From positions 64,001-128,000 of the IMG/VR virus record IMGVR_UViG_3300027374_000478: DNA of 64,000 bases; one strand, given 5' to 3'. Positions 3,456-62,736 of this stretch are shown here, piece after piece. Each line of letters opens with the position of its first letter. Position 1 is the stretch's first letter. Both the position numbers and the translations under genes were made by a program. This DNA comes from a virus (Duplodnaviria > Caudoviricetes). A model generated the notes under the pieces. It saw nothing but the letters and a program-made list of their open reading frames with translations, had not been told where the DNA came from and ran no database searches.

Positions 3456-3521
3456 ATCATTGAAAAGTCTCTTTTGTGGGCATGGATAAGTAATAAAAAA
3501 AGAATATAGAATTGTGGAGGT

Positions 3522-3875
3522 ATGACAATGAAAAATTTAATTGTAAAAGGCGAATACAATCCAGAAGTAAAAACGATGTATTATTACATTGAACCTGTAA
3601 CAGTTCATAAGTTGACAGCAACAACAGAAGAAAATAACAAAGCAACCTTAAAGGATTTTTATACAGCCGTTGAATGGTTGTTAAGTCGTGGATATGATGA
3701 ATATCACGAAGAATACAGTAACACCATAAATCCAGCACAACAAAATATATTTACTGCTTTGCGGTCTTATAGAGTAATACGGAATGGACACTACAAGTCA
3801 GTAAAGATTTTTCAAAGGGCTTTTGGAGGTTGTGTTATATCTGAATGCAACTTGCAGAATGAAACAAGCATGTAA
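3522..3875 (+). CDS. hypothetical protein
   Basis: 117 aa ORF, SD GGAGGT. Confidence 0.65.
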   Translation: MTMKNLIVKGEYNPEVKTMYYYIEPVTVHKLTATTEENNKATLKDFYTAVEWLLSRGYDEYHEEYSNTINPAQQNIFTALRSYRVIRNGHYKSVKIFQRAFGGCVISECNLQNETSM

Positions 3876-3902
3876 TCAATAAAACAATTATTTGAAAGGA
3901 AA

Positions 3903-4145
3903 ATGGTCATGAATAAAGCTATTGAAAAAATTAATAAATTCCTCAAAGCAACAACTAAAACGTTGGAATTGCGCTTTGATGATGGAATGTTTTTGCAACT
4001 TAAGAAACATGTCAAAAATGGAAAACATTTTCTTGAAGTCCATACATCCGGATATGATGGAACGTTTGAAATCACAGAAGCATTAGAGTGGATTAATTGG
4101 ACACTGTATGATTACTCGGCTAATGGATTTTTAAGAAATTTTTAA
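3903..4145 (+). CDS. hypothetical protein
   Basis: 80 aa ORF, SD AAAGGA. Confidence 0.65.
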   Translation: MVMNKAIEKINKFLKATTKTLELRFDDGMFLQLKKHVKNGKHFLEVHTSGYDGTFEITEALEWINWTLYDYSANGFLRNF

Positions 4146-4195
4146 CAATAAAAGGGATATTTAAAGGCAGATGGAAAATAAAACCGTCTGCCTTG

Positions 4196-4270
4196 CTTGT
4201 TATAATGCAGCCTGAAAGCCTGATCAACTTTCAGACAGTCCCAAGCCTGTAAAATGCAGAGGGTAACAAG
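4196..4270 (+). ncRNA. twister ribozyme (P1 type)
   Basis: P1 cttgtta/taacaag; TAA-TGCA-GC; P3 ctgaaag/ctttcag; acag-TCCCAAGC-ctgt; AAAA-TGCA-GAGGG, matching the twister core order. Confidence 0.85.
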
Positions 4271-4321
4271 AAATTAACAGAGAAATAGTTATTGATACAT
4301 AGATAATCAAAGAAAGGTTAA

Positions 4322-6007
4322 ATGGTGGAAATTATGTCAAATTACTATGATTACAGAGAAGTAAAGGTTATGATCGCTCACAAACTTATGTCCATGGAAG
4401 GTTGGAAAGTGTATGGATATACACCAGATGAAAGTGACAGCATGACAGATTATTGGAGTCCGGCACATTGGGATGGAGTAGCAGAAAAGAATGGTTATAT
4501 CTTATGCGTGGATGTTTACGGCGCAGCAGAACCGCAGGAAATCAGAAAATATAATTACTCTGGTTTTACATATGATCGCAGCATAGCGGAAAAAATCAAA
4601 AAGTTGGAAGCTATGACCGTTGAACGTGGAGCATCGGAAGCAGAAGAAGCAAGCGCAAAATTATCTATTGAACGTTTGCAGAAAAAAGCAGAAGAAACAA
4701 CGGAAAACGCAAGTAAATATATTGTTGTTGGTACAGTTCCCGGACATATGGCACACCCTCCAAAAATGAATTGGCATATTGAAAAAGATGGGATCATTAT
4801 TGCAAAGGGTAACGGCATTTTGAAATTTGCCCATATCTGGAAATATTACAATTATAACCGTGATATGGAATGGTTGAACGAATATAAGAAGGACAAAAAA
4901 GCATATGCCGATAAGCACACACAAGACCTTGTAAACCGTGGATATTATGACAGTGAGGAAGACGCAAGAAAGAATACAGAAAGACATATTGAGGATTTAG
5001 AGGAAGATATCAAGCTGATAGATAAGTTTGAGACATTCATCAATAAAATTGATACTACTTGTGGCGGTTTAATTGGAGAAGGTGACGGAACTGTATATGA
5101 AAAAGTAACCGTTACAGAATACAAAAAAGAAAATAAAGTTGTAGAAGATACGACTGGAAGCATTAAAGAGGGACAGCTTTTCATTCTGAAATCTAATTTC
5201 AATTATGGATGTTATAAAGGGCTTGTATATCGTATCCATGAAACAGAGAGAAACGGACAGAAACATTTTCATGCTTATAAACTAAATGGAAAACTTACAA
5301 AGGAATGTACAGGAAACGCAAGCCGTAATAACTATTGGTTTGTTGGTAGTGGTGATTCTGAATGCCTCACAAAATGGATTGAAAAGGGTTCTATTGCATG
5401 GTGTCATATTGAAGAGGTAAAAACGCCATATGAGGTGGAAAAGGTTGTAAAAAAGACTATTAAAGCAGAAAAGAAAAATACGACATCTACCACAACGGAA
5501 ACGGCACAGACAGAGGAAACAGACGTAAACGCCTATGCATATGAAGTATCAGAAGACACGGACACACGTACAGGAGAAAAAATATATCTTGTGAAGGTTG
5601 CGGAAAAATTGAGCCGTGAAGAGTATATAACCGTAAACAAGTATATTAAATCTTTGGGCGGATATTACTCAAAATTTAAACATGCGTTTTTATTCAAGGA
5701 AAATCCATCAGAGAAGTTGAACGTAATTATAGCGGAAACAACACAGACGGCAGAACCGGCACAGGAAGCACAAAGCACAAAGGAAGAACCAGAAGCGAAA
5801 AAAACAAGTATTTCCTATACAATTACAGAGGATCAGCACACGCAAACACACGCGAAAATCTGGATTGTGAAGCCTGAAAAGGAATTAAACAAGTCAGACT
5901 TTGCGGAGGTTAAGCGGAAACTTGCAACGCTACAAGGCTATTATAGCAGTTTTAAACGTGGTTTTATTTTTAAATATGATCCAACGGAAGCATTACAAAC
6001 AGGATAA
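4322..6007 (+). CDS. large multi-domain hypothetical protein (DUF2786-like segment; two repeated C-terminal domains)
   Basis: 561 aa; 'KIKKLEAMTVERGASEAE'; repeated 'Y.v.ED....T..KI.lVK....L....f..v......L.GYYS.FK..F.FK..P' domain. Confidence 0.75.
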   Translation: MVEIMSNYYDYREVKVMIAHKLMSMEGWKVYGYTPDESDSMTDYWSPAHWDGVAEKNGYILCVDVYGAAEPQEIRKYNYSGFTYDRSIAEKIKKLEAMTVERGASEAEEASAKLSIERLQKKAEETTENASKYIVVGTVPGHMAHPPKMNWHIEKDGIIIAKGNGILKFAHIWKYYNYNRDMEWLNEYKKDKKAYADKHTQDLVNRGYYDSEEDARKNTERHIEDLEEDIKLIDKFETFINKIDTTCGGLIGEGDGTVYEKVTVTEYKKENKVVEDTTGSIKEGQLFILKSNFNYGCYKGLVYRIHETERNGQKHFHAYKLNGKLTKECTGNASRNNYWFVGSGDSECLTKWIEKGSIAWCHIEEVKTPYEVEKVVKKTIKAEKKNTTSTTTETAQTEETDVNAYAYEVSEDTDTRTGEKIYLVKVAEKLSREEYITVNKYIKSLGGYYSKFKHAFLFKENPSEKLNVIIAETTQTAEPAQEAQSTKEEPEAKKTSISYTITEDQHTQTHAKIWIVKPEKELNKSDFAEVKRKLATLQGYYSSFKRGFIFKYDPTEALQTG

Positions 6008-6040
6008 TATAAAGACGGTTGAAATATACCGCCTTATAAA

Positions 6041-7690: not shown

Positions 7691-8283
7691 AGCCGATGAA
7701 ATTGTAATTTGAAAGGAGGACAACATGATTAATTTAAAGAAAGGTGTAAACCTTAAAAAACGTAAAAGGAATAATTGTACTTACACTTGTAAAATAAGCA
7801 CAAAAAAACTAATCAAATAATTTGTATGTAGTTAGAACGGCTATAGAGAATATAAGACTATAGCCGTTTTATAGTGCTTACAAAAAAGATAAATAAAAGG
7901 TAGGAGGTTGAAAAATGCAGAATAATATAGTTGCAGAATATGATTATTATACCTTGGATCAGGCAAGAAAAATTATACTTGCAGAAGAAAGGCAAAAGAA
8001 AAATGAAATAGTAGAATGTTATCTTGCTGGTGCTGCAATGTTTCTAATGCCGATTTTAATGTTTTTGCATTGGCTGATAGTTGGATATTAAGGGAGGTTA
8101 TGGTATGATAACTAATATATGGTGTTCTTGGAAAGAATTTGATGAATACGAGCTAGATAAGAAATACAAACTTGTAGATTGTGGAATGAGCAAAAAACAC
8201 TTAGGCTATAAGTTGCTGCGAGATATGGAGAGAAATATCAATGTATACGTAAGATAAATCGTGTATTTCATTGGACAAATAAA

Positions 8284-9119: not shown

Positions 9120-9147
9120 AATACCCATGAAACTACTGTTTTAAGAT

Positions 9148-9867: not shown

Positions 9868-10092
9868 ATGCAACAGTTAAAAACAGAAAATTGTATTATA
9901 TGTGGTCAAAAAGCAAAATATTGAAAAGGTTATGTCAAAGGATTATATAAATATGCTCTTGGATATTCTGAAAGAAAAGTAATTGCTGGATTTTGCAAAA
10001 ATCATAAAGAACACGAGAGCAATAATAGTGGATGCTATGGAGAATATGATTCTGAAAAAATGGGAAGATGTATTCCATTATTTAATAGGTAA
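9868..10092 (+). pseudogene. small Cys-containing gene interrupted by TGA at 9922
   Basis: MQQLKTENCIICGQKAKY*KGYV... frame stays open to TAA 10090-10092, abutting a junction site. Confidence 0.55.
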
Positions 10093-11256: not shown

Positions 11257-11463
11257 ATGAAGCGGAGGACATATAATAACGTTTTAAAAGCTGTGAGATT
11301 GATTCAGAAAAAGGGATATGAAAAGAAAGAATCTTTAGAAATGGCAATTAAAATATTTGATGAAATGGAATTACTTAATAATGGAATGTCTATTGAATGG
11401 AGAATTAACCAGATTGTAGATAAAGAAACATGGAAACGAGAAGCAGAACTGTATAAGTCTTGA
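11257..11463 (+). CDS. hypothetical protein
   Basis: 68 aa, SD GGGAGG; the stop codon is the first triplet of a junction site. Confidence 0.65.
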   Translation: MKRRTYNNVLKAVRLIQKKGYEKKESLEMAIKIFDEMELLNNGMSIEWRINQIVDKETWKREAELYKS

Positions 11464-12285
11464 AACAATGGTTTCAAGTACATAGAATGGAGGATTTTTG
11501 AGAGTGATCAGAAACAAGATAAAATTTGTCAGAAATAATTATTAGATATATGGAGGTATGGTTATGGTTGATAATTTAGGACGATGGACGGAAGAAAAAG
11601 ATTATAATACATATCCAAAAGAAAAATGGTGCGATATGGATTATATGGCAGCATGGATTGTCTGAATTTGATTTTGAACCATAAAAGGCAACGAAATAAG
11701 GTTAAAATGATTTTAAATTAAAAGGAGAATAAAAATGAAGATTGTTATTTGTTACGCAATACACGAAAAGAAAATTGTAAGTTATGATACATTTGCAAGT
11801 GAAAACGATGCTTTTATTTTTATAAAAAATGATGCACAAAAAGTATATAATGAAGAAATTTACAATGGAAATTATTAATATTGCATAAAGGAGATAAAAA
11901 ATATGACAAAAAATGAAGAAATAATATGGGAAGATCTGAAAGAAAAAGCCAGAATGGCTGGTTATATAATTTTTAATCGTAAAAATTTAGAAACAGAAAG
12001 GGAATATGATGAAGCTGTAGAAAACCTAGTAAAATTTGAAATTGAGCATGGAATATTATAATTTGCTAATAAAGGAGAGGTAAAGACAATGATAGAAATT
12101 GAAAAAGAAGATAAAGTTATTTTTAGTGGTTCTAAAGATGAGTGCGTTGAATTTTTGAAAAAACTTGGAATTATTAATAAAAATGAAACTGATATACGTT
12201 TGCTTACAATGGCAGCACTGGCTACAAAATTTGGTTTATCTATGTTTAGTCGATAAAAATTAGGCATGTGGTAGGAGAATAAAAA

Positions 12286-13168: not shown

Positions 13169-13446
13169 AAGCATGACACTAGATTTTACCACTTTGGGTT
13201 TGAGTTAGTTGATTAAAGACTGGAAATCAGGATTTTATCGAAAATGAATGGAGGACAATATGAAGAATAAGAGATTAACGGAAATTGCTAAAAAAGTTTA
13301 TTTTTCAGGATTAGGACGTATAGATTGGAATGAAGTGGAAGAAGAATATAAACTATCGAAAACGGAACTTAATTATGTGACAAGTATAATCAGAAATTGG
13401 AACAGAAAATAACAATGAAATCGGAATTTCATCGAAAGGAAGGTAT

Positions 13447-13767: not shown

Positions 13768-13816
13768 AAATTAGAACAATGAATCTCGTATTTCAAGACA
13801 GAATTGGAGGGAATAA

Positions 13817-14140: not shown

Positions 14141-14377
14141 ATGGAAAGATATGAGGTAGAAGACATAATTTTAACAATGGCAGATATTGTTAGAGAGAAC
14201 AGGTATTTAAGAAAAGAAAATAATAGACTTAGCAAGATTGAAAAAGAATATCAAAATTCAATTTTTGAAAGAGCAAAAGAAAGTGAACAAGCAAGTAGGA
14301 ATATGTTAAATGCTGCACTTGTTGGAATTACACAAGGAAAAGTAAATTTAGCAAGTGAATTATTAGATTATCTTTAA
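14141..14377 (+). CDS. hypothetical coiled-coil protein
   Basis: SD GGAGG before ATG 14141. Confidence 0.6.
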   Translation: MERYEVEDIILTMADIVRENRYLRKENNRLSKIEKEYQNSIFERAKESEQASRNMLNAALVGITQGKVNLASELLDYL

Positions 14378-14736
14378 AATTCGCATTTTAAGACAACAAT
14401 ATGAGGAGGTGTTATAATTGTCAATACTTGGAGGAATAATCTTTTTAATTATTGCTTGGTTACTTGATTAAAACAAAGGTTAAATGCCACTGGAATTATC
14501 TGGTGGCTTTAATTATGGAAAAATGTTATAATATAGGAGTTTAGAATATGGATAAAGAAATTATATTAGATTTTATATGTTATGGAAAACATATGGTTGT
14601 AGTAAAATTAGAGCATGGAACACATGTTATGTATATAGATGAATGGAAACGTACATCTAAAAAACGACATTTAGAACATCGAGATAAAAAACGAAAATAT
14701 AAAACAGCTTAATTGATAATATTAGGAGGAATTAAT

Positions 14737-15786
14737 ATGAAGACTTATGAGAGAAAGTCTTTTCCTAGAATGGCAAGAGATTTAAAGGTGATGTATGATA
14801 AGGGCAATTTATCTTTTGATAACGCAGTACAGAGATCATTTGTGTGGAAAAATACTTCTAAAGACAATCGCATGAGTATATTGATAGACAGTATGATGAG
14901 AGGGTTTCCAATTCCTGCAATGTATTGTAATTGTATATTTGAAGATATCAAAAATAAAACATATGATTTCCTTGATGGAAAACAAAGAACAACGACTGTT
15001 ATAAAATTTTTGAATGATGAATTTCCGCTTGTAAATACTCCCTCCTTTGAAGATGAGGATGGAATTGAGCATGATTTTAATGGATTGACATTTTCTCAAC
15101 TTCCGGAAGATATAAGGGACACTATTAAAACATATAACCTGACTATTTATTATTATGAAAATATGGATCAGGAAGACGCCGAAGAAATGTTCCGTAGATT
15201 AAATAATGGAAAATCGCTGACGGCAATAGAATTGACAAGAGCAAATGCAATCTCTAAAATAGAAATTAGTCAACTTGCAAAACATGAAATGTTTAATGTT
15301 GCTTTATCAGAAAAGTCATTGGCTGCATATGCAAATGAAGATGTTGTAATTAAGACATGGATATTGTTATATGGCACTAAAAAATCATTTGAAACAAAAA
15401 ATATACGTCCTGTAATGCGGGAAACAGTAATTACAAAGGATCAGGTAGAAGAAATTAATAGAATATATGATGCTTTTCTAAAAGTTTATAAGATTTTGCA
15501 GAATGCCGAACAGTTTAAGGTTGTCAAAAAGATTTTAGGAAAAGTTCATTTAATTTCTTTAATGTCTATATTGAAAAAAACTATTCATGAAAATATAAAT
15601 ATTGAATTAGTCGAAAAATGGTTGATTACGTTTTTTGGAACAGGAACTAGATTTGTATCTATTAACAACAAGTATAATGAATATTCAAAAGGTCGTGTTG
15701 CAGTTACGGAAGAGGCGGTTGAACTGAGAGGGAAAATATTGTTAGAAAATTTTGAGGAGTTTTTGGAAGAAAGTAGTAGCGAATAG
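14737..15786 (+). CDS. DUF262 (GmrSD N-terminal, ParB/Srx fold) protein
   Basis: QRSFVW, LIDSMMRGFPIP, LDGKQR, F.RLNNG..L motifs. Confidence 0.85.
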   Translation: MKTYERKSFPRMARDLKVMYDKGNLSFDNAVQRSFVWKNTSKDNRMSILIDSMMRGFPIPAMYCNCIFEDIKNKTYDFLDGKQRTTTVIKFLNDEFPLVNTPSFEDEDGIEHDFNGLTFSQLPEDIRDTIKTYNLTIYYYENMDQEDAEEMFRRLNNGKSLTAIELTRANAISKIEISQLAKHEMFNVALSEKSLAAYANEDVVIKTWILLYGTKKSFETKNIRPVMRETVITKDQVEEINRIYDAFLKVYKILQNAEQFKVVKKILGKVHLISLMSILKKTIHENINIELVEKWLITFFGTGTRFVSINNKYNEYSKGRVAVTEEAVELRGKILLENFEEFLEESSSE

Positions 15787-15820
15787 AAGGATTATTTCAT
15801 GGAAAAATGGAGGAATTATA

Positions 15821-15985: not shown

Positions 15986-16020
15986 ATAAAATGATTGTTT
16001 CAAGAGGGAAAGGAAAAAAT

Positions 16021-16859: not shown

Positions 16860-17789
16860 ATGAGCACAGTTGTGGCAATGAATGAGGAAACAAGGAGGAT
16901 GGAGCAGTTCAATGACATAGTGGCAAATATCAAGCCACTTATGACTGTTGGAAAAGGTAAGAATCAGAGAGCAATTACAGGGAGTGCAGTTGTTCCGTTG
17001 TCTTGTTGTTTTGTGGATTCAAGGTATCAGGGCATGAGAACACATAAGCATCTGAATCGGTTAAAGAATAAATGGGATGAACGAAAGTTGACACCTATTA
17101 TCTTAGTACCACATCCAGAAGAATCCAGATTTGCGGTTGTAGATGGTCAGGGGAGGTGTCTTGTGGCTCCTGAGAAGGGTATGGATCGTCTTAATGCAAT
17201 CATTCTCATGGATGCTCCTGAAGATTTGGATGAACGTCTGAAATTTGAAGCTGAGTATTTTATCGGACAGGATTCAGAAGTGGAAAATGTGAAGCCTCTT
17301 GAAAAGCATCTTTCAAGAGTGATTATTGGTGATAATGCTGCCGTTTCTCTGGATAAACTTTTAAACAAATATGGAATTAAATTTGTAGCCACTAAAGGAA
17401 ATAGAGGAGAGTCTATACTTGGAAGTTATACAGATGCGTATTCAATTGCGAAAGTGCATGGTGAAAAGTGTCTGGACTTTATTTTTTCTATCGTTGATAA
17501 TGCTGGGTGGAATAAAGAGACAAACGGATATGCGACATTTGTAATGAGGGCATTAAGGGAGGTTTGGATTGCCCATCCGAATGATAGGAAAGAAATACAT
17601 AGGTATTTGTCAAAGGAATTAAGGCAGATTGATCCTGCGTTATTCAGTGCAGAAGCAAAATCAAAATATCCGAAGCGTGACCACAGAGTATCTTGTGTTC
17701 TTTATGTGGAAGATTTGGTATGTGATGGACTTGGAATAGAGAAGAAGATATATGTAGAGAACGGGAAGAAAGTTAAAATCTCAAAATGA
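16860..17789 (+). CDS. ParB/Srx-fold N-terminal domain protein
   Basis: 'FVDSRYQ', 'FAVVDGQGR' motifs. Confidence 0.75.
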   Translation: MSTVVAMNEETRRMEQFNDIVANIKPLMTVGKGKNQRAITGSAVVPLSCCFVDSRYQGMRTHKHLNRLKNKWDERKLTPIILVPHPEESRFAVVDGQGRCLVAPEKGMDRLNAIILMDAPEDLDERLKFEAEYFIGQDSEVENVKPLEKHLSRVIIGDNAAVSLDKLLNKYGIKFVATKGNRGESILGSYTDAYSIAKVHGEKCLDFIFSIVDNAGWNKETNGYATFVMRALREVWIAHPNDRKEIHRYLSKELRQIDPALFSAEAKSKYPKRDHRVSCVLYVEDLVCDGLGIEKKIYVENGKKVKISK

Positions 17790-18972: not shown

Positions 18973-19536
18973 ATGGCATATATTTTGCAAAAAGACGCTT
19001 ATTATTGCTATCTGGATGGCAAACATACAATATGTAAAACACAAAACCTAAATTTGGCAACAAGGTTTGAAACACAAGGTAGTGCCAGAGCTATGCTAAA
19101 TAAAGCGACAAAGAAATTGAAAGACTATAAGATTGTTGATATGGAAACCATGCAACAGGTAGGAGATATTCATAAAATTAAGCGCAAACAATTTTCGTCA
19201 GAGGAAAGAATTAAAATTTATAATAAGGGTAAAGGGAGATGTGCAATATGCGGAAAATTTATTCCATATGACAGTTTTACAGTCGATCATATTGTTCCTT
19301 TAGCAAAAGGTGGAACTAATGCAATGGATAATCTTCAAGTTGCCTGTAGCGTATGTAATCTTATTAAACAGGATATTTTACCAGAAGATTTAATGAAGAA
19401 ATTAACGGAAATTATCTTATATCAAATGAAGAAATCATATGATGATGACTTATGGAAAAAATTATATTACATAAGGCGATTGAAACAGAAAAATAGATTT
19501 TTAATAGTAATGAGAAGAATTTTAAAACAGACTTGA
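18973..19536 (+). CDS. HNH endonuclease domain protein
   Basis: CAIC...VDHIVPLAKGGTN..DNLQVACSVCN..K. Confidence 0.85.
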   Translation: MAYILQKDAYYCYLDGKHTICKTQNLNLATRFETQGSARAMLNKATKKLKDYKIVDMETMQQVGDIHKIKRKQFSSEERIKIYNKGKGRCAICGKFIPYDSFTVDHIVPLAKGGTNAMDNLQVACSVCNLIKQDILPEDLMKKLTEIILYQMKKSYDDDLWKKLYYIRRLKQKNRFLIVMRRILKQT

Positions 19537-19577
19537 AATCATCGTTTCAACTTGTGATACATAGTTGCACAGAATAT

Positions 19578-19891: not shown

Positions 19892-19894
19892 TCT

Positions 19895-20249: not shown

Positions 20250-21245
20250 ATGTGTTATAAGGATGAAATTCAGAAGAAAAATGCGGAAAAATTACAAAGG
20301 AAAATGAATGAAGACAATATACCAATGTTCATACAGTTATATCTTTTAAACAGAAAAAGTAAATTAGGTGCATTAAATTATTATTCTGTTATTAAAAATT
20401 TGTTACGATGGATGATAGATAAAAGGCTGATTCAAAAGAATAGTATATCAGAAATTACACCGCCAGATATGGAATATATAGAGTCAGCTTATATAAATAT
20501 GTATTTAGAAGAAAAACAAAATGAAGGAATATCGCCGACAACATTGAACACAAGGAAAAACATTTTTAGAAGTTTTTGGAAGTCTATGGTTAATTCTCCT
20601 AGTGTACCTGTAAAATGTAACATTATTGAAGATGTAGCATATGAAGGTTTGGATTCTGGATATAATCGCTATGTTAAAATGCCATCAAAGGACGATCTGG
20701 AAGAAATGAGGAAAAATATTAATCAGAAAAAGAAGAATGACCGTTTTGTAAGGGACAGGAACCTGCTTATACTTACAATCCTGATGAATACAGGTTTGAG
20801 GGCATGTGAACTTATAGAATTAGAATTTTCTTCATTATTCTTAGATGGAAACGAAATAGAAAAAACGCCACATATCAGAGTAATGGGAAAAGGGGTATAT
20901 TATTCTGCACTAGGAAGAAATATTTTGCTTAATCTTACCGCAAAAGATGCATTTTTGAAATGGCTTGAAGTCAGAAATACAATAAATGTCATAGATGACA
21001 GAGCTATTTTCTTAAATAAGACAGGGAAAAGAATGCAAGAGTCTGACTTGAGAGCAATGTTTTTTGTATATAGTGGTAAAAAACTTACTCCACATATGAT
21101 CAGGCATTGGTATGGAACTGTAATAACAGAAAAATATGGAGTTGCATTCGCACAGCAACAGTTAGGGCATAAGAATGTGAATGTCACAGTAAATACTTAT
21201 GTAGATGGGGGATATGGTATTAGAGAAAAACTAGCACTAGAATAG
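20250..21245 (+). CDS. tyrosine recombinase (XerC/XerS-like)
   Basis: catalytic R (TGLR), K (MGKG), HxxR (PHMIRH), LGH, Y (NTY); N-terminal core-binding domain. Confidence 0.9.
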   Translation: MCYKDEIQKKNAEKLQRKMNEDNIPMFIQLYLLNRKSKLGALNYYSVIKNLLRWMIDKRLIQKNSISEITPPDMEYIESAYINMYLEEKQNEGISPTTLNTRKNIFRSFWKSMVNSPSVPVKCNIIEDVAYEGLDSGYNRYVKMPSKDDLEEMRKNINQKKKNDRFVRDRNLLILTILMNTGLRACELIELEFSSLFLDGNEIEKTPHIRVMGKGVYYSALGRNILLNLTAKDAFLKWLEVRNTINVIDDRAIFLNKTGKRMQESDLRAMFFVYSGKKLTPHMIRHWYGTVITEKYGVAFAQQQLGHKNVNVTVNTYVDGGYGIREKLALE

Positions 21246-21537
21246 AAAATGTATGGTATAATGGGAAGTGGGTGAAACATAGATGAATATTGCAACATAT
21301 CAAACAACACCAGAAAAGCATGGAGATGGAACATTTTTCTTTACAGATTGTGGACACAATATGTATTCTATAAGAGATATTATGGCGTATCATGGTTGCT
21401 TGTGTCCTGGCTGTTTCTGAAAAGGGATATATACAACATTGTATATTAGAGGTTCCGAAGAAGCAAATAAGTATTGGAATGAGAAACGCAAGAAAATGGA
21501 AATGAATGATTGATTTTATTGGAACGGAGGAAATATT

Positions 21538-22233: not shown

Positions 22234-22270
22234 GCAGTTGAATACTTGATTTTATTGGAGGATTAAAACT

Positions 22271-22621
22271 ATGAGTAAATTAAGAGTGTGGTGGATTCCG
22301 CAAGTGGGAATAAAGGAGACTTTCTATATACCAGTTAATAGTGTAGAAGAAGGTAAAAAGATGATAGATGTATTGGCAGCTTATGATGCGTTTCAGTATC
22401 AAAATAGAGTTAAGCCAGATTATTGTAATGTTGGTGGTTTGCAGATGTTTGACGAATTGGAAGGCGAGTGGAATGATTGGTATTTAGAAACAGGTGATGA
22501 TTATTTTGATGACGTAGATAAGTATTGTGAATCTGATAGTTGTGCTCAGAAGGAAGAGTTAGAATTATTTAGTAATAGTGTTATGGGACAGGTTGATTGG
22601 AAAGAAGTTATGACACGATGA
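22271..22621 (+). CDS. P22 gp17-like protein (superinfection-exclusion gene product 17 family)
   Basis: 'KLRVWWIPQV....FY.PV.SVEEG....D.LAAYDAFQY.N..KPDYCN.GGLQMFD' resembles that family, recognised from memory. Confidence 0.7.
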   Translation: MSKLRVWWIPQVGIKETFYIPVNSVEEGKKMIDVLAAYDAFQYQNRVKPDYCNVGGLQMFDELEGEWNDWYLETGDDYFDDVDKYCESDSCAQKEELELFSNSVMGQVDWKEVMTR

Positions 22622-22643
22622 ATGTCTGATTTTATTTAGTAGT

Positions 22644-24068: not shown

Positions 24069-24118
24069 ATGATAGTCTTGAAATCCGGTTTTCATGGCAA
24101 AAAATTGGAGGTAAACAG

Positions 24119-24867: not shown

Positions 24868-25084
24868 TTATAATATTGGAGGTTAATAACATGAAAACAA
24901 TTTGGTATGCTGTAGTTGATTCAATAGAAGTTCCAGATGATATGAGCGATCATGAAATCGATAATAAAATCAATAAAATAGCTGATGGTAAGGAAGTTAT
25001 GTGGTCAGAAAAAGACGATCTTATTGATATTCGTCAATGGGATTAAAAATGCCAATAGAATGTTGCTTTCAATAGGAGGATAAA

Positions 25085-25519: not shown

Positions 25520-25810
25520 ATGAAAGGCTGGATTCAAGGGTATTTAGGAGGGATATTGTTGAAATCTGAAGGCGTAAAAGATGTATTCAAATGGTTAGAT
25601 AAAAAATGCAAAGAACAAAAAAATGTTGTTGAAAAAGCTGAACAGAATTTTCAAGATACGAAACGAAGTTGTTATTTTGAAGATGAACAATGTTTGATAG
25701 ATTCAGCGGAAATTGAATTGGAACGAGCGAAGGAAAGACTAAATGCGTATGTAGATATAAAGATTAGTGTAGAGAAATATATGCGAAAATTAAGACATCA
25801 AGGAGAGTAG
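25520..25810 (+). CDS. hypothetical coiled-coil protein
   Basis: ORF; SD AGGAGG suggests a TTG start near 25556. Confidence 0.55.
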   Translation: MKGWIQGYLGGILLKSEGVKDVFKWLDKKCKEQKNVVEKAEQNFQDTKRSCYFEDEQCLIDSAEIELERAKERLNAYVDIKISVEKYMRKLRHQGE

Positions 25811-25853
25811 AGCATTGAAATTCTAGTTTTGTGGTATAGGTAGGGATAATATT

Positions 25854-32220: not shown

Positions 32221-32484
32221 ATGAAATATATTAGTGATGATGGAAGGGTATTCGATACAGAACAGGAATATTGTAAACATGAACAACAGATCAGAAAAGC
32301 AAAAGAGGATGAGAGAATTAAGAAAGAGAAGTTAGAATCTGAACGCAAAACTTTGATGGATCAGATTTGTCAGAAGTGTAAGGAGTTAAGTGAACTTACA
32401 CAAACTTATTATGACAAATTTGGTATAACAATGGGAGAATATCTTCCATTTGGAGAGTTTTTAAAAATTTTGTATGAGTCTTAA
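32221..32484 (+). CDS. hypothetical protein
   Basis: 87 aa, SD AAGGAGG. Confidence 0.65.
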   Translation: MKYISDDGRVFDTEQEYCKHEQQIRKAKEDERIKKEKLESERKTLMDQICQKCKELSELTQTYYDKFGITMGEYLPFGEFLKILYES

Positions 32485-32753
32485 AAGTCGTATTTTAATT
32501 ATAATTAAATAGGAGTAGAAGAGATGGATAAAAAGTGTTTTGTATATAGGTGTAAATGTTGTGGCGCTACATTTTTTATAAATGCAAAAGATATAACTGT
32601 AGCAGAATCTACAACATTAAAAAAAATAAAAAATTAGATAAACTTCAAATTCATAAATGTGATGAAAATACATCTCTTGTTGGAATTGGAGAATTAATTG
32701 GAGCAACAGATATTATAAGATGAAAATTTGATTTTGTGGTGTGAGGTGATAGG

Positions 32754-33092: not shown

Positions 33093-33296
33093 ATGACCTA
33101 CCAAATAGCAGACCAAAGACACCCATTCAGGGGGCTTGACAATAAAATCTGCAAAAATCCTACATATTGGTGCAGACTACATCAGGTTTGGATGTCTGAT
33201 GATGATGTAAAGAAGAAACAATGTAAATGTAAACAGACTTTTGACATGGTTGGTACATATTGTTGCGGAAATTTAGTCAAGAAGTCAATAAAATGA
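33093..33296 (+). CDS. small Cys-rich hypothetical protein
   Basis: 67 aa ORF. Confidence 0.55.
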   Translation: MTYQIADQRHPFRGLDNKICKNPTYWCRLHQVWMSDDDVKKKQCKCKQTFDMVGTYCCGNLVKKSIK

Positions 33297-33357
33297 AACT
33301 TTCAAGTGCAAAAAGAGAAGTATATATTAAACACACAAATAGAAAAGGAGAGATATT

Positions 33358-35865: not shown

Positions 35866-36095
35866 TGGAATATATTTTGTTTTCATTTATATTAGCTGGA
35901 ACACCTGCTTTATATACTGGATATTGTAATAAATTGAGAGACTTAATTCGATTAATTTTCATCATAACATTTATCGTAATCTATTATATTAATAAATGGG
36001 AAACCGCAGATATTAATGTGGGATTATTCGTTTGTTGGTGTGCAGTATGGACGATATTTTGGGATAATTTATATAAGAAACTTAAAAGGAAATGA
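35862..36095 (+). CDS. small membrane protein
   Basis: 77 aa, 2-3 hydrophobic segments. Confidence 0.6.
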   Translation: MMEYILFSFILAGTPALYTGYCNKLRDLIRLIFIITFIVIYYINKWETADINVGLFVCWCAVWTIFWDNLYKKLKRK

Positions 36096-36129
36096 AACAC
36101 GAGTTTCAAAGAAAGGAGAAATAGAACAT

Positions 36130-36567: not shown

Positions 36568-36605
36568 ATAAAATTTCCGTTTCAATTGATGAGAAAGGCG
36601 AAAAG

Positions 36606-36896
36606 ATGAAAGTATTAAAAGAGAATAATTTTTCTGGGACATTTCCTATGAAAATAACATGTAAAAGAGTCGTAGATGAATATGGATTTGCATATGGAAA
36701 GAAAGAAGATTTTTGTGGAAGTGAACTTGAAATTGATTCAGATGATATAAAGAAACATAGGTGGAGCAAGTATCCAGATTATAGTGGAACAGATTATGGA
36801 ATTATTTGTCCTGTGTGTGGTCAGTTTATCTCTATTGATGAGAATAAAATACCCAAATATGTTATTGAAAATGTGGAAGAAATTTATATTGGATGA
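36606..36896 (+). CDS. hypothetical protein with zinc ribbon
   Basis: 96 aa, CPVC. Confidence 0.65.
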   Translation: MKVLKENNFSGTFPMKITCKRVVDEYGFAYGKKEDFCGSELEIDSDDIKKHRWSKYPDYSGTDYGIICPVCGQFISIDENKIPKYVIENVEEIYIG

Positions 36897-36929
36897 AACG
36901 AAGGTTTCAAGTAAAAGTGAGGTGGTAAT

Positions 36930-37253: not shown

Positions 37254-37616
37254 CCAATAGAAGAAACATTTTAACTGGAGGTGATGATTTGGTATGAAGA
37301 TCGCTATAGAAATACCAAAAGAATATGAAATTGATTTTAAAGCAGATAAATTCAAAGATTTCTTTTCAAGAGTAATAGCAGATATGAATTGTTTGTGTGG
37401 TAATTATGAAACAGAAATAGCACATATGCTAATTAAAGCGTTTAATAATGGAGAAATAATAAAATAGGCATCCTGATACTTTGGCGAGTGGGCAAGATGC
37501 CTATAAGCAACAAAACGGATAACCGCTTTGATAAGTCTTAGTATATCAATTCTATTAGATTTAATCAAGTCGGTAATTCCACAAATAAAAAATAGAATAT
37601 AGGTGGTGATGTAGTA

Positions 37617-38120: not shown

Positions 38121-38322
38121 AGTATTCCTAAAGAGTAAAACGATAGGATAGTGGTTGTGGTTCTCAGCCGTTGTATCAGAATTTTTTTGATACATAAATG
38201 GGTATTTTACCCGATGAATTAAATCTTTTATTGCCATAGATGGCAAAAATATAAATACAGAAAGGATACGAATGTTCACTGGTGAAGAAAGCTGCGCAGC
38301 TACTAAGTAATGGTGAACAAAA

Positions 38323-40470: not shown

Positions 40471-41042
40471 ATTCTGCTTGTGGCGAAGAAGTAATATGTA
40501 TTGATGATACACAAGGTTTTGATGGTGCTAGATTTTACAAAGATTATGTTCCAACATTGCGAAGTCAAAGAAGCGGATTAAAAGTTGCTTGTATTAAAGA
40601 TAAAGAATATTTAGATATTTGTATCAACGATAGAGGAAAGGTAAATAAAAAACCACAGATAACATATGGGCATTCGCCAACACTTATTTCTGAATTTCAT
40701 GGGAATTTACCAAAAGTTGTTGAGGTAAGAGGTGCCGCTATGCGTGGTAGGTACAATTCAGATGGAAAAACAGAACAGAAAATAGAAGTAAGAGATGATG
40801 AGTTGTCTAATGCAATTACAACTGTACAGAAAGACTCGTTAATTGTAGAAAATAAGTCTTGGTTCGAAAAGAAATATACAGAGTTTTATGAGAAATATGG
40901 TTATATTCCAGAATATTTTGTTCCATATAACGGAACTGAATGTAAAGATTATGCATCGACTTTAACTGCAAATTCTAATACAAGTCCAACACATTCTGGG
41001 ACGATTTTAATTATGGAGATTGGCAAAGAAAAGAAGTCTTAA
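40449..41042 (+). CDS. MTase variable-region (TRD-like) module, probably a -1 frameshift extension of the upstream MTase
   Basis: PTL/STL repeats ('VPTLRS','SPTLIS','NAITTVQKD','ASTLTA'); no SD; open from a slippery site at 40443. Confidence 0.65.
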   Translation, partial: YQTTSGVNSACGEEVICIDDTQGFDGARFYKDYVPTLRSQRSGLKVACIKDKEYLDICINDRGKVNKKPQITYGHSPTLISEFHGNLPKVVEVRGAAMRGRYNSDGKTEQKIEVRDDELSNAITTVQKDSLIVENKSWFEKKYTEFYEKYGYIPEYFVPYNGTECKDYASTLTANSNTSPTHSGTILIMEIGKEKKS

Positions 41043-41062
41043 AACCCACGTTTCAAAGGAAG

Positions 41063-44274: not shown

Positions 44275-44319
44275 AGAAATGAAATCGAGATTTTAAGGCA
44301 GAAAAAGAGGTGATAGATA

Positions 44320-46842: not shown

Positions 46843-46862
46843 TATTCAAATAAATGCTGGTG

Positions 46863-47350: not shown

Positions 47351-47367
47351 TAACACTGATACCTATA

Positions 47368-50724: not shown

Positions 50725-50872
50725 ATAAGTAAGGTAAGTGGCAATGAAAATTTCGATTCATTGTATGTCAAAAAGTAGAAGCAAAATAAGCATATGCAAA
50801 AATTAGAATAATAAAACCAGGAGGAAATGAGGTTTCTGCGCAGAATAAATCATGATTTACTCCTAAATAAGA

Positions 50873-51754: not shown

Positions 51755-51955
51755 ATACATATAGACTTAAAACATCGGTTTCATTGGGAGTTATCAGTTC
51801 ATAACTGGTAGTTCTCATTCGGGAGATAGTTGCCTTACCAATTCTAACGACTCCCAACAAACGGTAGGAATGGCGTTTACGACAGGCGGTAGTGTAGCTC
51901 CTTCCTTGTACGAGAACAAGGGCAAACTACATTAAAGAATATTTGGAGGTATAAA

Positions 51956-52174
51956 ATGGATAAGAGGGAAATAGATGGTGTAGAAATTAATGGTAAAAGT
52001 ATTATTACTTCATTAAAAATTATTAAGCAGGTTTGCAAGGACAACCTTAATGAGAAAGGAAATTGTGGTAATTGTCCATTTTTTGTAGACCAAAGTGATT
52101 GCTGTGGAATCGAAAATATGACACCTGATAATTGGAAGATTTTAGAATATACAAAGTTTCAAGCATTAGGATAA
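51956..52174 (+). CDS. small Cys-rich hypothetical protein
   Basis: 72 aa, SD GGAGGT. Confidence 0.6.
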   Translation: MDKREIDGVEINGKSIITSLKIIKQVCKDNLNEKGNCGNCPFFVDQSDCCGIENMTPDNWKILEYTKFQALG

Positions 52175-52206
52175 ATTTTTCATTTCAAAGGAAGGAGAAA
52201 CAAGTA

Positions 52207-52449
52207 ATGAAGGTTAATCTACACAGAGTTAATTATGATGGTTCAGAGAATAGTAATGGAAATTGGTGGGTATGGAAAGAGATATGTGATAAATGTGGAA
52301 AAACAGTTTCAGACGAAGATATATTACACTCGTTTCCTGGAGATGAATCAGAATTAGATTTTTGTGTAGATTGTTATCATTATTTATTGGATAATGGTAT
52401 TTCATACGAACAGGCTATTGGTTTGTATGGTAAAAACTCAAACGGTTAA
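52207..52449 (+). CDS. hypothetical zinc-finger protein
   Basis: SD AAGGAG; CDKC...CVDC. Confidence 0.6.
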   Translation: MKVNLHRVNYDGSENSNGNWWVWKEICDKCGKTVSDEDILHSFPGDESELDFCVDCYHYLLDNGISYEQAIGLYGKNSNG

Positions 52450-52494
52450 AACAACTCTTTCATTGGGAAAAATTTAAAGAAATGAGGTCATAAA

Positions 52495-53905: not shown

Positions 53906-53910
53906 AAAAT

Positions 53911-54507: not shown

Positions 54508-54548
54508 TCTTGAAATTTTGCTTTTATTGGATGAGGAAGGAGGAAATA

Positions 54549-54908: not shown

Positions 54909-54984
54909 AGAACAAAGAATAAAAAAACATGGGAGGCAAAGAGGTTTGTCATGACAGAAAAGTGCGCTTTACTCCTAAATAATA

Positions 54985-56160: not shown

Positions 56161-56173
56161 GATGGAGTGAATT

Positions 56174-56485: not shown

Positions 56486-56669
56486 TATTCCACACGGAAT
56501 ATAAAATGTATTCCGAAATTCCAATTTGGATATCGGATAGGCGGTTTTCTAGCCCGTTACATACGCATATGCCTATGTAGAATGTCTTTTAAAAGGCAAT
56601 AGAACCAGAGTTTCAAGGCAGATACCATAATTTTGATTTATAATATCTGCCAGAAAAAGTTTGTTTATA

Positions 56670-57158
56670 TTAGCTGTTTAAGGTATCTATTTTTCCCTCA
56701 ATAGTATGAAGTAGCCTGCGAAAATCAATTATGATTGGAATTTCATAAGGATATAATTCGTCCTCATTTAATGGTAATTTTATTTTTAAAAGCATATCAT
56801 GGATGTCTGATAGTTCTTGCAATTGTAAATTATTTCGATCAATATAGCAAGACACCTTATTTGTTAAATCAGTGAGACCAGCAATATTACCATAACGAAG
56901 GATATCAATTTGATTGACATATTCATCTGATTTTGGTAGAGAATTGTTCCAACTAATTATTTGTTTTTGACTTTCTAATTCAGCGTTAATTTTTGCTAAT
57001 ATTTGAGAAGTATCAGCATCCTTTTCTTTTAGACTTTTTTCAATTTCTAAACGTATATCATTTTTGGATTTTTTGTTACTTCTGTAACTTATGTATGCCA
57101 CAATTATTGGAGAAATAATAACGAGAATATCCTTTATTGCAGTTAAATATGCATCCAT
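56670..57158 (-). CDS. reverse-oriented membrane-anchored hypothetical protein (moron-like)
   Basis: N-terminal TM helix plus coiled coil; SD AAGGAGAG. Confidence 0.7.
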   Translation of the reverse strand: MDAYLTAIKDILVIISPIIVAYISYRSNKKSKNDIRLEIEKSLKEKDADTSQILAKINAELESQKQIISWNNSLPKSDEYVNQIDILRYGNIAGLTDLTNKVSCYIDRNNLQLQELSDIHDMLLKIKLPLNEDELYPYEIPIIIDFRRLLHTIEGKIDTLNS

Positions 57159-58616: not shown

Positions 58617-58820
58617 GATATTTTGATATGGATAGAAATGACTTATTAGTAGAATCTTCTAATGGCAAAGACCCAGAACCATGTAGTGATTATGATAAAG
58701 AAACTGGTTATTGTAAAAGTTTTGGTAAACCGTGTGATGCATGTTATGAAAATAGTTTAAAGAAATGGTTTTATTACTATTGAAATCTTGGTTTCAAGTG
58801 GCGGGAGGTGATGCAATAAC

Positions 58821-59916: not shown

Positions 59917-60096
59917 ATGGATAAGAATCAGATATATGAAACAGCATTTGAAACAATTAAAGAATCTACAGAATGGGGATTAGAAGATGAAAGTAAAACA
60001 TATGGACACTAGATCGATGGTGTAGTGGCGATGACAGATAATCTTATTGATAAACTTAAAGAAGAAAAGAATGGTAGACCTGTAGAGAAGTATTAA
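59917..60096 (+). pseudogene. small gene interrupted by TAG at 60010
   Basis: MDKNQIYE...YGH*IDGVV... open to TAA in the junction site at 60094. Confidence 0.55.
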
Positions 60097-60502
60097 AAGC
60101 ACGATTTCAAGGTTTGAGGGGTGATATTATAGAAGAAAATATAAACAAGGCATTTAAACCAATGAAGATGATAGCAGAGAAAATACCTACTGTTGCTATT
60201 TGCGGGATGGGAAAGTCAATAAATAATTTAGCAAAAGAAATTATAAAGGCTGAAGAAGAATATATAAAAATGGAACAGATGAAGGTTTTGGGCTTAAATG
60301 AGGAAATATTGAACTGTAGATCCGCTCTAACGTTAGAAGAATTGAATAAAAATGTTTTCTGAAATTGATACAGAAATAATTGACACAGAGAGCATTTCAA
60401 ATCTTAAAAAGAGAATAAAGTATTGCAAAAACCCTATGGAACGAAAACAGTTAGAACAAAGATTGAATGTTTTGTATAAAGAGCAAAAAAGGAAGAGAAA
60501 AA

Positions 60503-61300: not shown

Positions 61301-61349
61301 ATGAATGCGTTCTTTCATGGCAAAAATATAAAGAAAAGGAGAAAATAGA

Positions 61350-61565
61350 TTGAAAGTTGGGGATAAGGTAATTGTAAAAGATAATCTGAAAGACGAATTA
61401 AAGAAATTAACATTTGATAATGGCACTTGCGAAAGTATGCACGAGAGATTTGTAAATACAGAACAAGAAATATTCGCTTTATGGAAAAATGATGATGGAC
61501 AAGAGTACGCAACAGTAGATTTGTGTTGTGAAATTCCAGTACAGTGCTTAGAAGTTATTGATTGA
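61350..61565 (+). CDS. small SH3/KOW-like protein
   Basis: MKVGDKVIV... Confidence 0.6.
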   Translation: MKVGDKVIVKDNLKDELKKLTFDNGTCESMHERFVNTEQEIFALWKNDDGQEYATVDLCCEIPVQCLEVID

Positions 61566-61591
61566 ACCAAATTTTATTGAAGGAGGAATAT

Positions 61592-61894
61592 ATGTTTAAG
61601 TATTGGAAAGTTGGAAACGATGGAAAATATTATTATGTGTACAATGAATCCATTGAAGAAATAAAGGAAGAATTTGATATTCAAGATCCGAATTTCAAAT
61701 TTATAGAAAGTGACGAATGGACTGCCGAAAATTATGCTGAGATTCTTAGTGATGAATTAGAGAATGCAAATTATCATAGATGGACAGAACTGCCATGTAC
61801 TATTTTAAATGCTTTGGAGAAGTCTAATCTTTCAAAAGAAAAGATTGATTCAGTTATGAAAGAGATTGCGGAAGGTATTTATAAAATGATATAA
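61592..61894 (+). CDS. hypothetical protein
   Basis: SD AAGGAGG, MFKYWKVG... Confidence 0.65.
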   Translation: MFKYWKVGNDGKYYYVYNESIEEIKEEFDIQDPNFKFIESDEWTAENYAEILSDELENANYHRWTELPCTILNALEKSNLSKEKIDSVMKEIAEGIYKMI

Positions 61895-61927
61895 ACATAT
61901 ATGAATTTTGAAAAGGAGAATAGCTAA

Positions 61928-62575
61928 TTGGGAATTATAAAATTGATTAAAAAAGATACAAACATATCAGAACTTAAAATGTCAAAAATGCCGTGGGATG
62001 TAATGCTTTATGGGAAACCATATCAGGTTGTGAGTATTAAGGGGTATGTTCATACAATCGGGGGTAGACGAGGAGAAAATGATTTATGGATGTATCCAAG
62101 AGATGAGAGTCCTACATATGAAAATCTGATTGAATTTCAGTGTGAAGACTTTGGAGTATGTTGGGGAATTAAATATGAACCACATAATTATGTAAGAAAT
62201 AAGTGGGATGAATCAGAATGTTATACAAGCGGCGGTGCTATGATTACAAGAAATGGAGAAAACTTCTATTTTTGCAGAGGAGGCATTGATGAAGCTGAAT
62301 GGAGAATAAAACATTTAGACGAGCATCCATTAGACTTGAATGAATATGGATATGCAGAGAAAATGATTGGCAGAAAGGTTTGGTGGCGAAGCGAACCAGC
62401 AATTATAACTGATTGGATTGATGATGGACAAGCATGTGTGATCCTTGAACCTGATGGTATTGAAAAATTTACAACACCTTCGGAATTTGCTGAGGAAGAA
62501 GGCGATGATTATTATGAAGATGGTTTTGTAAAGGCAGAAATTTTTGACCAACATATCTGGTGGCATAGAGACTGA
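61928..62575 (+). CDS. hypothetical phage protein
   Basis: 215 aa, SD AAGGAG. Confidence 0.7.
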   Translation: MGIIKLIKKDTNISELKMSKMPWDVMLYGKPYQVVSIKGYVHTIGGRRGENDLWMYPRDESPTYENLIEFQCEDFGVCWGIKYEPHNYVRNKWDESECYTSGGAMITRNGENFYFCRGGIDEAEWRIKHLDEHPLDLNEYGYAEKMIGRKVWWRSEPAIITDWIDDGQACVILEPDGIEKFTTPSEFAEEEGDDYYEDGFVKAEIFDQHIWWHRD

Positions 62576-62580
62576 AATGT

Positions 62581-62628
62581 ACACAATATATAGCGTATAG
62601 CGGATAAAGCAAACACTATATATTGGCA
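62581..62628. promoter_or_regulatory. tandem NrdR-box-like sites
   Basis: acacaatatatagcgt and acactatatattggca, 32 bp apart. Confidence 0.7.
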
Positions 62629-62736
62629 TGATAAGCTGTTGAAATTCTTATTTTATTGAGCTAGTTAAATTATTGTATGAAATAATCTTCTGTGGTATGA
62701 TTTTTGTAATATATACTATGGAAGGAGAAAAATTTT

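Follow-up and report, generated by a model that had tools for sequence, protein, structure and literature searches.

The DNA analysed here, a window of 64,000 nucleotides covering bases 64001-128000 of a 159,091-bp IMG/VR 'provirus' record, is the early/accessory arm of a 159-kb SPbeta-like phage from mouse-gut Clostridia, and it is punctuated by about 50 copies of a 16-bp palindrome, T(G/A)AAA-N6-TTT(C/T)A, in which fixed arms enclose a variable six-base centre. Comparison with related phages shows that these sites mark exchange points, that their centres (cores) are conserved and ordered, and that their arms travel with the adjacent flanks; across related phages, the series of centres is retained in unchanged order although the genes in between are swapped. 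With somewhat better than even confidence, we propose that the sites are most likely Xer/Cre-type crossover sites in double-stranded DNA (dsDNA), each junction exchanging with the same junction in related phages. In what follows, the whole record is referred to as G000, its close relatives as G001-G005 and two more distant records as G006 and G007.

A sequence-only reading had described some fifty recurrent sites with nearly fixed arm spacing, a different core in each copy and a polar position at gene junctions. As an observation this is borne out in part, since the motif is real and intergenic, but neither its polarity nor its near-universal presence at junctions holds. With the pattern as first written, the window yields 64 strand matches where 13.6 are expected, and none of 100 shuffles reaches this number; only the spacer N6 is enriched (35 copies, vs 5-14 for N2-N11), and no core repeats within any one genome, all 59 cores of G000 being distinct. 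A position-weight scan returns 48 window sites with a score of at least 11, and about 58 sites with a score of at least 13 on the plus strand of the whole 159-kb record, compared with 1-6 in Markov shuffles. While the coding fraction is 0.79, 46 of the 48 window sites are intergenic (P 4e-29); only 43 of 114 junctions are occupied, however, and thus not nearly all of them. Most sites (35/48) lie no more than 15 nt from the upstream stop codon, and 25/48 lie 8-35 nt ahead of a start. The motif had been said to supply the upstream stop in at least 13 cases (11461, 14375, 15784, 19534, 22619, 27450, 32482, 36093, 36894, 41040, 52172, 52447, 60854), which is correct for all 13, and 17 window sites in all do so through their own TGA, TAA or TAG.

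The arms form a perfect dyad and the outer flanks are roughly symmetric too (C-N-W ... W-N-G), while the small leftover asymmetry (A on both sides, G at +17/+18) tracks the purine-rich coding strand; the site being a true palindrome, the orientation formerly claimed for it is weak. The information profile consists of a specific inner 5 bp, a weak outer arm of about 6 bp and a 6-bp centre that is free between sites yet fixed per junction; the weakly conserved, symmetric outer flank extends in the Bacillus phage SPbeta out to -6. At junctions that also have a terminator-like hairpin, the site stands between stop codon and hairpin, which links it to the gene boundary rather than to the ribosome site downstream. 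The early/accessory arm is densely populated with sites, whereas few occur in the structural arm or the replication module. As previously noted, they border a diversity-generating retroelement (DGR) block (33289, 36093) and a radical S-adenosylmethionine (rSAM) block (52447, 54511). The regulatory block 27650-32480, described as free of sites, has no strong copy but does contain two weak matches, at 27857 and 30437. A de novo dyad search of 77 loci also returned CCGGT-N9-ACCGG in L049 and L054, which was rejected as coding tandem repeats and not junction sites.

In junction pairs with at least one common flank, the core is either identical at all six positions or unrelated: core mismatches amount to 0/414, while divergence is 6-9% over the neighbouring 12 nt of homologous flank (P 2e-10 for the contrast, one pair per family) and up to 22% at the degenerate arm positions. 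The cores of G000 recur in G001 (40/59) and equally in G002 (40/59), against about 1.8 expected by chance, and nearly all recurring cores are collinear with G000 (39/40 in G001, 40/40 in G002, 20/20 in G003, 12/12 in G004 and 22/22 in G005). A strict flank measure, inexact and blind to some true homology, finds neither flank homologous in 106 of 134 core-sharing pairs. Likewise, SPbeta has 8-11 cores in common with each of three relatives, all collinear. Distant lineages (G000, G006, G007, SPbeta) have the arms in common, but not the cores beyond chance.

The arms, in turn, follow their neighbours. The right arm is identical in 38/40 pairs with a homologous right flank vs 25/58 without (P 3e-8), and the left arm in 35/40 pairs with a homologous left flank vs 32/58 without (P 8e-4). 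Each arm thus co-segregates with its own flank, which puts the crossover inside the stretch bounded by the variable arm positions, in the core or at its borders. Pairs sharing only the right flank around a different core were mostly ribosome-site look-alikes and not true homology, with about two real cases, and a crossover polarity drawn from them was dropped for this reason.

As the sequence-only reading would have it, relatives that have gained, lost or replaced genes show the breakpoints of these changes at the sites. The right arms of G000, G001 and G002 align by blastn as short blocks, with 27 of 104 block ends no more than 25 nt from a site centre, mostly at the outer arm edge, and 19/48 block ends between SPbeta and Goe11, SPbetaL6 and BUCT083 likewise fall at sites. 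Contigs of four mouse-gut RNA libraries, which represent related phages and can show joints but not transcript ends or expression, break at 19532-34, 21503, 22238-9, 24076, 25051 and 25829, and the exact matches of some contigs to the window run from site to site.

Enrichment of the motif is just as strong in the five close relatives. G006 has 23 strict copies (control 1) and G007 has 19 (control 0), while whole host metagenome-assembled genomes (MAGs) show barely any enrichment. Two phages without the motif (L016, L017) carry a gene 88% identical to one in the window, and therefore the motif belongs to the phage lineage, not to the gene. Phage SPbeta has 36 copies at N6 vs 0-10 at other spacers (reversed control 3); nearly all read TAAAA-N6-TTTTA and stand at the stops of yop, yoq, yor, yos and yot genes, about 30 of the 36 being intergenic or stop-overlapping in the GenBank annotation. 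Counts against the reversed control are 29 to 5 in Tsamsa and 29 to 3 in PK-3, with weak enrichment in Lactococcus phage 949 (12 to 6) and a Staphylococcus SPbeta-like phage (20 to 10). No description of the motif was found in the SPbeta literature searched (PMC10516654; 10.1101/2021.11.22.469490; 10.1101/2020.05.06.055103), and the SPbeta GenBank record annotates stem-loops and two other palindromes, not these sites.

The assignment to the SPbeta-like phages follows from matches to SPbeta open reading frames (ORFs) together with a common two-arm layout. Local tblastn of SPbeta ORFs against G000 matched the tape measure, YomM, the terminase, YonJ, YorI/J/K/L and MtbP, and in relatives the YonO RNA polymerase and YonN as well. 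The left arm (1-64 kb of the record, minus-strand genes) encodes tape measure, tail and terminase proteins, and the right arm (plus strand) has about 115 mostly small genes followed by a replication module with DNA polymerase III alpha-like, helicase, RecJ-like, ligase and NrdD genes; SPbeta shows the same two arms. Related prophages were found in Clostridia/Lachnospiraceae MAGs, and DNA of the window itself is present in mouse-gut sequencing runs, while megablast of 24.6 kb of the window gave no match in a phage collection. Few genes are common to G000, G001 and G002 at high identity, and their tape measure, terminase and polymerase are often just 22-48% identical.

Table 1. Junction sites and the recombinase gene in the window. 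Sites are listed without strand (.); PWM, position-weight score.
Feature	Position	Strand	Remarks
Site TGAAA-AGTCTC-TTTTG	3461..3476	.	PWM 16.5; core and right flank same in G002, G003; left flank unrelated
Site, core CAATTA	3880..3895	.	PWM 17.2; core collinear in G001, G002, G003
Site, core GGGATA, then terminator-like hairpin	4149..4164	.	PWM 17.3; common to G003
Site, core TTGTAA	7697..7712	.	PWM 19.3; G002 homology stops just past site
Site, core CGTGTA	8255..8270	.	TAA is upstream stop
Site, core CTACTG	9128..9143	.	PWM 18.6
Site, weaker arm TGTCA, core AGGTTA	9922..9937	.	PWM 14.9
Site, core CAATGG	11461..11476	.	TGA is upstream stop
Site GGAAA-TCAGGA-TTTTA	13222..13237	.	Left flank and core as in G001; right flank differs
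Site, core TCGGAA	13416..13431	.	PWM 20.3; core also in G001, G002
Site, core CTCGTA	13780..13795	.	Identical site in G003, both flanks unrelated
Site, core TTCGCA	14375..14390	.	TAA is stop
Site TAGAA-GGATTA-TTTCA	15784..15799	.	TAG is stop
Site, core TGATTG	15987..16002	.	In G005 same core ahead of different gene
Site within ORF 16860-17789, core AGCATC	17300..17315	.	Sole clear coding copy; both flanks conserved in G001, G002
Site, core TCATCG	19534..19549	.	TGA is stop; G001/G002 homology begins 1-2 nt ahead; contig joints 19532-19534
Tyrosine recombinase gene named in the sequence-only reading	20250..21245	+	PF00589; R, K, HxxR, H, Y present
Site, core GATTGA	21503..21518	.	Block end; contig joint and loose end
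Site, core ACTTGA	22239..22254	.	Common to G002, G003, G005; joints 22238/22239
Site, core GTCTGA	22619..22634	.	
Site, core TCCGGT	24079..24094	.	Left flank, left arm, core identical in G001-G003; four different right flanks
Site TAGAA-TGTTGC-TTTCA	25056..25071	.	Block-end and junction-pair comparison
Site TGAAA-GGCTGG-ATTCA	25521..25536	.	One core, three different left flanks; RNA-library contig is exactly 25518-25829
Site, core TTCTAG	25816..25831	.	Block-end, contig and junction-pair comparison
Site, core GTGAAA	27450..27465	.	
Site (weak), core GTCGTA	32482..32497	.	PWM 11.9
Site, core ATTTGA	32721..32736	.	G001/G002 homology begins at left edge
Site, core TGAAAC	33289..33304	.	Left border, DGR block
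Site, core CACGAG	36093..36108	.	Right border, DGR block; core with variant arms in G003, G005
Site, core TTTCCG	36569..36584	.	In G001 core joined to gene 3' of site 41040
Site, core CGAAGG	36894..36909	.	
Site TAGAA-GAAACA-TTTTA	37258..37273	.	
Site, core TAAATC	38215..38230	.	
Site, core CCCACG	41040..41055	.	G002: left flank and core same; G001: right arm and right flank same, other core
Site, core TCGAGA	44280..44295	.	Common to G002, G004, G005
Site, core AGCCAA	49496..49511	.	
Site TGAAA-ATTTCG-ATTCA	50745..50760	.	Left end of block common to G001, G005
Site, core CATCGG	51768..51783	.	Right end of G001/G005 block starting at 50745
Site, core TTTTCA	52172..52187	.	
Site, core CAACTC	52447..52462	.	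Left border, rSAM block
Site, core TTTTGC	54511..54526	.	Right border, rSAM block; G004 homology begins few nt ahead
Site TAGAA-CCAGAG-TTTCA	56600..56615	.	
Site, core GGTTAA	58168..58183	.	
Site, core TCTTGG	58781..58796	.	
Site, core GCACGA	60094..60109	.	
Site, core CCGAAA	60854..60869	.	
Site, core GCGTTC	61302..61317	.	
Site, core TTCTTA	62640..62655	.	Left flank and core as in G001; right flank differs

The strong site within an ORF (17300-17315) extends to a 9-bp stem, CTCTTGAAA...TTTCAAGAG, and may mark an old fusion of two cassettes.

To judge from the comparisons, the sites have the anatomy that would be expected of tyrosine-recombinase core sites, namely inverted arms, a 6-bp centre without consensus, a crossover in or at the centre and identical partner centres, with about three exceptions. 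Exchange confined to identical centres is the classical tyrosine recombinase rule. In the model that we propose, two inverted recombinase-binding arms, strongly conserved in the inner 5 bp (TRAAA) and weakly in about 6 outer bp, would flank a 6-bp central region within which strand exchange would take place. Each junction of the accessory arm has a centre of its own, so that it would recombine just with its counterpart in another genome, and a productive exchange would involve the same junction of two related genomes, brought together by co-infection or when a phage meets a resident prophage. Two such exchanges at neighbouring junctions would swap whatever gene or genes lie in the slot, one slot at a time and with gene order kept, while deletions between different junctions of one genome would be rare.

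A dedicated tyrosine recombinase would perform this exchange, and the one encoded at 20250-21245 had been put forward for the role. It has all catalytic residues, its best solved relative is XerH, and it has its own promoter, mid-array, behind a YefM/YoeB pair. The gene is present just in G000 and G001, however; G002, G003, G005 and G006, all of which carry the motif, have an unrelated recombinase family at its position. Not being conserved among motif-bearing relatives, it is probably not the site enzyme and is thus an unlikely choice. The pair just upstream (19640-20149), recognized by reading the sequence as a YefM/Phd-like antitoxin with a YoeB-like toxin, is served by a TTGACA-17-TATACT promoter of its own and by a strong terminator; together with the recombinase it forms a plasmid-like maintenance pairing that recalls P1 phd-doc and cre.

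The best candidate enzyme appears instead to be a YomM-like tyrosine recombinase encoded at 46508-47539 of G000, outside the window, because the matches detectable by tblastn between SPbeta and G000 include no tyrosine recombinase other than YomM. The predicted protein is 32% identical to SPbeta YomM (E 7e-51) and has relatives in G001-G003 and G007; R, K, HxxR/K, H and Y are conserved. Full-length homologues adjoin the tape-measure gene in Tsamsa, PK-3, Lactococcus 949 and the Staphylococcus SPbeta-like phage (L174-L177), a conserved position within the tail module. Two other candidates for the site-binding protein were set aside: a 126-aa CxxC protein (23688-24068), confined to close relatives and without a detected SPbeta homologue, and the block of MazF-like, 204-aa, sigma and DUF262-like proteins, for which no SPbeta homologue was detected either, though SPbeta has the motif.

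Several points weigh against this reading. Recombinase action at the sites is what we infer from comparison, which maps the crossover just to the roughly 10 nt between variable arm positions; general recombination, or recombination driven by a single-strand annealing protein (SSAP), with a need for about 16 bp of identity would join same-core copies as well and give the same pattern. The centre is not absolutely fixed, since 3/26 Bacillus junction pairs show a single core substitution. A few events joined unlike cores: in G001, window positions 36585-41055 are absent between sites 36569 and 41040, whose cores differ, and the loss of yoqH-yoqI in SPbetaL6 also joined different cores; off-address events thus occur but are rare. 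The joint presence of a YomM-like gene and the motif in SPbeta, G000-G003, G007, Tsamsa and PK-3 is confounded by common descent, the YomM-like proteins are just 21-32% identical among genomes with the same arms, and Lactococcus 949 and the Staphylococcus SPbeta-like phage encode the recombinase yet are weakly enriched in the motif.

The combinations at positions 1/14 (A-C 16, G-C 15, G-T 14, A-T 3) show no covariation, flank pairs are below expectation, and A-C and T-T mismatches occur in about half of the copies. Five of eight sites fold no better than shuffles, and the only Rfam match in the window at gathering score is a tRNA-Met (29199-29272), with none at the sites. Matches to sigma-70-type promoters number 104, vs 102.8 in shuffles, and no -10 element occurs at a fixed distance. 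The lack of covariation, of a promoter and of an Rfam match therefore identifies the motif as a double-stranded DNA site, and the depletion of the doubly weak A-T form (3 vs about 9 expected) fits a protein reading two half-sites on duplex DNA. A sigma-70 promoter or a promoter early stem-loop (PeSL) is ruled out by promoter matches at shuffle level, the missing fixed -10 and the lack of a general hairpin; a sigma-54-like -24/-12 geometry and an extracytoplasmic function (ECF) -35 element were dropped, the ribosome site starting 1-15 nt past the motif. An RNA role for the motif, earlier raised as a processing or antitermination signal and taken here to include stabilising and translational-operator hairpins between cistrons, is rejected on covariation, folding and the Rfam search, and we give it the lowest probability of all. 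Its position between stop codon and ribosome-binding site, the MazF-like endoribonuclease encoded by the phage and the good folding of perfect palindromes such as 11461 speak for it, but it would also leave unexplained why the supposed loop sequences stay ordered and conserved while both neighbouring genes change.

The main rival, which takes up the repeated operator listed as an alternative in the sequence-only reading, is a palindrome that binds a conserved dimeric protein (a regulator, a roadblock like the L5 'stoperator' or a nucleoid protein), the exchange being a by-product of homologous or SSAP-driven recombination on about 16 bp of identity. This would explain the arms and, indirectly, the core rule, and we regard it as unlikely while taking it seriously. 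Dyads of the form 5-N6-5 on one helix face are typical of helix-turn-helix dimers, the A-T depletion at positions 1/14 suggests a threshold of total binding energy, and the sites have a regulon-like density in the early/accessory arm as opposed to the structural arm and replication module; moreover, these phages encode SSAPs (a Sak4-like SSAP, YorG, is annotated in SPbeta), and identity-dependent recombination would also keep cores and order. However, there is no motif copy at the early promoter/switch region (window 1-3400) and no sigma-70-type promoter at a fixed distance, the stop-site-terminator order does not tie the site to downstream expression, and no transcription regulator was detected among the SPbeta-G000 tblastn matches. 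The SPbeta master repressor MrpR binds a different motif, with about ten peaks in chromatin affinity purification sequencing (ChAP-seq; PMC10516654); the word found in 7/7 upstream regions (yorE, aimR, yonT and others), AATATGTATA, is unrelated to TRAAA-N6-TTTYA, and the MrpR/SPBRE operator was discarded as a candidate. Finally, 16 bp is a poor substrate compared with hundreds of bp of gene homology, yet many block ends fall exactly at sites.

The interpretation first offered was an integron-like capture, in which the 20250-21245 recombinase or host XerCD would move site-flanked cassettes at any site, with non-identical overlaps tolerated. The intact tyrosine recombinase within the array, the few unlike-core joins and the different slots that some genes occupy in G001 and G005 would agree with it. 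Nevertheless, almost all exchanges keep identical cores, and the centres form a conserved series in fixed order; the recombinase is restricted to two genomes and replaced elsewhere by an unrelated family; and the arms of the sites are unlike those of host dif as cited in PMC5357621. Exchange just between copies with identical centres is the signature of a Xer/Cre-type core site and not of such capture, which we consider very improbable. From that interpretation the breakpoints at sites and the tyrosine-recombinase core-site anatomy survive, while the integron picture and the enzyme proposed for it do not.

The Xer/Cre-type reading can be compared with several known systems. In XerH-difH, the recombinase recognizes the bases of the inner 5 bp in each arm, touches the outer arm through its backbone and makes hardly any contact with the 6-bp centre (PMC5241119); the left arm of difH ends in ...ATGAAAA, and the arms of difH and difSL end in GAAAA/TTTTC (PMC5357621). 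The sites described here resemble the Xer core sites of XerH-difH and XerS-difSL in their inverted arms, 6-bp centre, specific inner 5 bp and weak outer arm (PMC5241119, PMC5357621), as well as in the inner arm ...TGAAA(A) and in the need for centre identity in exchange. Xer systems, by contrast, have one site per replicon and serve dimer resolution, whereas here there are about 50 sites with 50 centres at gene junctions and a candidate enzyme only. The pdif/dif modules of Acinetobacter plasmids also comprise many Xer-like 11-6-11 sites bounding shuffled accessory modules (PMC6449649, PMC13141974), but their arms are asymmetric (XerC and XerD halves), their orientation alternates and they rely on host XerCD in plasmids, while here both arms are the same half-site; an ordered, conserved series of centres was not reported for pdif (PMC6449649, PMC13141974).

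A further parallel is cassette exchange between heterospecific lox or FRT sites, where the arms are the same, the spacers unlike, only like spacers recombine and two sites swap a cassette; that system is engineered, as established laboratory practice, and the phage would carry a natural array of about 50 spacer variants. PeSLs of T4-type phages are likewise repeated intergenic elements in hyperplastic early regions, at the borders of swapped genes (PMC2839356, PMC4122927), but they are promoter-plus-terminator units of about 50-70 bp used by homology recombination, in contrast to the site-specific centre found here without promoter or stable hairpin. Integrons share a recombination site after each cassette ORF and a tyrosine recombinase, but attC is a folded single strand of 57-141 nt, one attI accompanies the cassette promoter Pc and insertion is any-to-any; here the site is 16-22 bp and no attI, Pc or folded attC was seen. 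The stoperators of Cluster A mycobacteriophages and SPBRE/MrpR offer tens of short-site copies in short intergenic gaps of temperate phages (PMC9283540, PMC6550527, PMC10516654), and MrpR itself has a tyrosine-recombinase fold (PMC10516654). Stoperators, however, are asymmetric 13-mers identical to the early operator, unlike these symmetric sites, and SPBRE is a different 15-bp sequence (containing AATATGTATA) with about ten copies.

Other features of the phage deserve mention. At the head of the early arm, about 1.5 kb (1966-3456) with GC content above the surroundings has no plausible ORF and neither tRNA nor Rfam match, and is perhaps a large non-coding RNA or leader. A conserved block at 28259-32206, common to the Clostridial relatives including G006 and almost without junction sites, comprises a MazF-like endoribonuclease, tRNA-Met (29198-29273), a 204-aa protein, a sigma factor (30180-30758) and a 483-aa DUF262-like protein; tblastn detected no SPbeta homologue of it. 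Three paralogous proteins with a DUF262/GmrSD_N domain are encoded in this one arm (14713-15786, 17813-18856, 30755-32206). A STAND NTPase (NB-ARC/NACHT) gene running off the end of the window (62737-63999) is likely a defence gene carried as a cassette, a Fic/DOC-family protein (26398-27153) is 87-93% conserved in relatives, and an AntA-type antirepressor lies near the arm switch (L151, 4535-5386). The 126-aa protein with CxxC...CxxC, which belongs to no Pfam family, is 99-100% identical in G001-G003 while its DNA differs by 5-8%, which indicates very strong purifying selection. At the SPbeta YonO position, G000 has adjacent ORFs of 613 and 623 aa (53334-57046, outside the window), one matching phrog_8308 (profile length 847); no DxDGD motif was found in them, and tblastn with YonO gave no hit in G000 but one in G003 at 42%.

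The mosaic genomes of phages are usually explained by illegitimate recombination, which is rare and is followed by selection, or by homologous recombination within common genes. In the present case, addressed joints form a scaffold that runs through a whole phage group and is more strongly conserved than the genes it separates. As a broader and more tentative proposal, which we regard as possible rather than probable, SPbeta-like phages from Bacillus to gut Clostridia, the model phage SPbeta among them, may run a natural cassette exchange, in which about 35-60 ordered heterospecific Xer-like sites would be read by the conserved and so far function-less YomM, accessory, defence and counter-defence genes would be swapped slot by slot with their order left intact, and six-base addresses particular to each lineage would set the exchange partners. 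If a dedicated enzyme does use these joints, this would explain the fast turnover of anti-defence and accessory genes within a kept architecture in large temperate phages, reveal what the orphan recombinase YomM of a model phage does, and supply genome engineering with a set of orthogonal recombination sites of natural origin.

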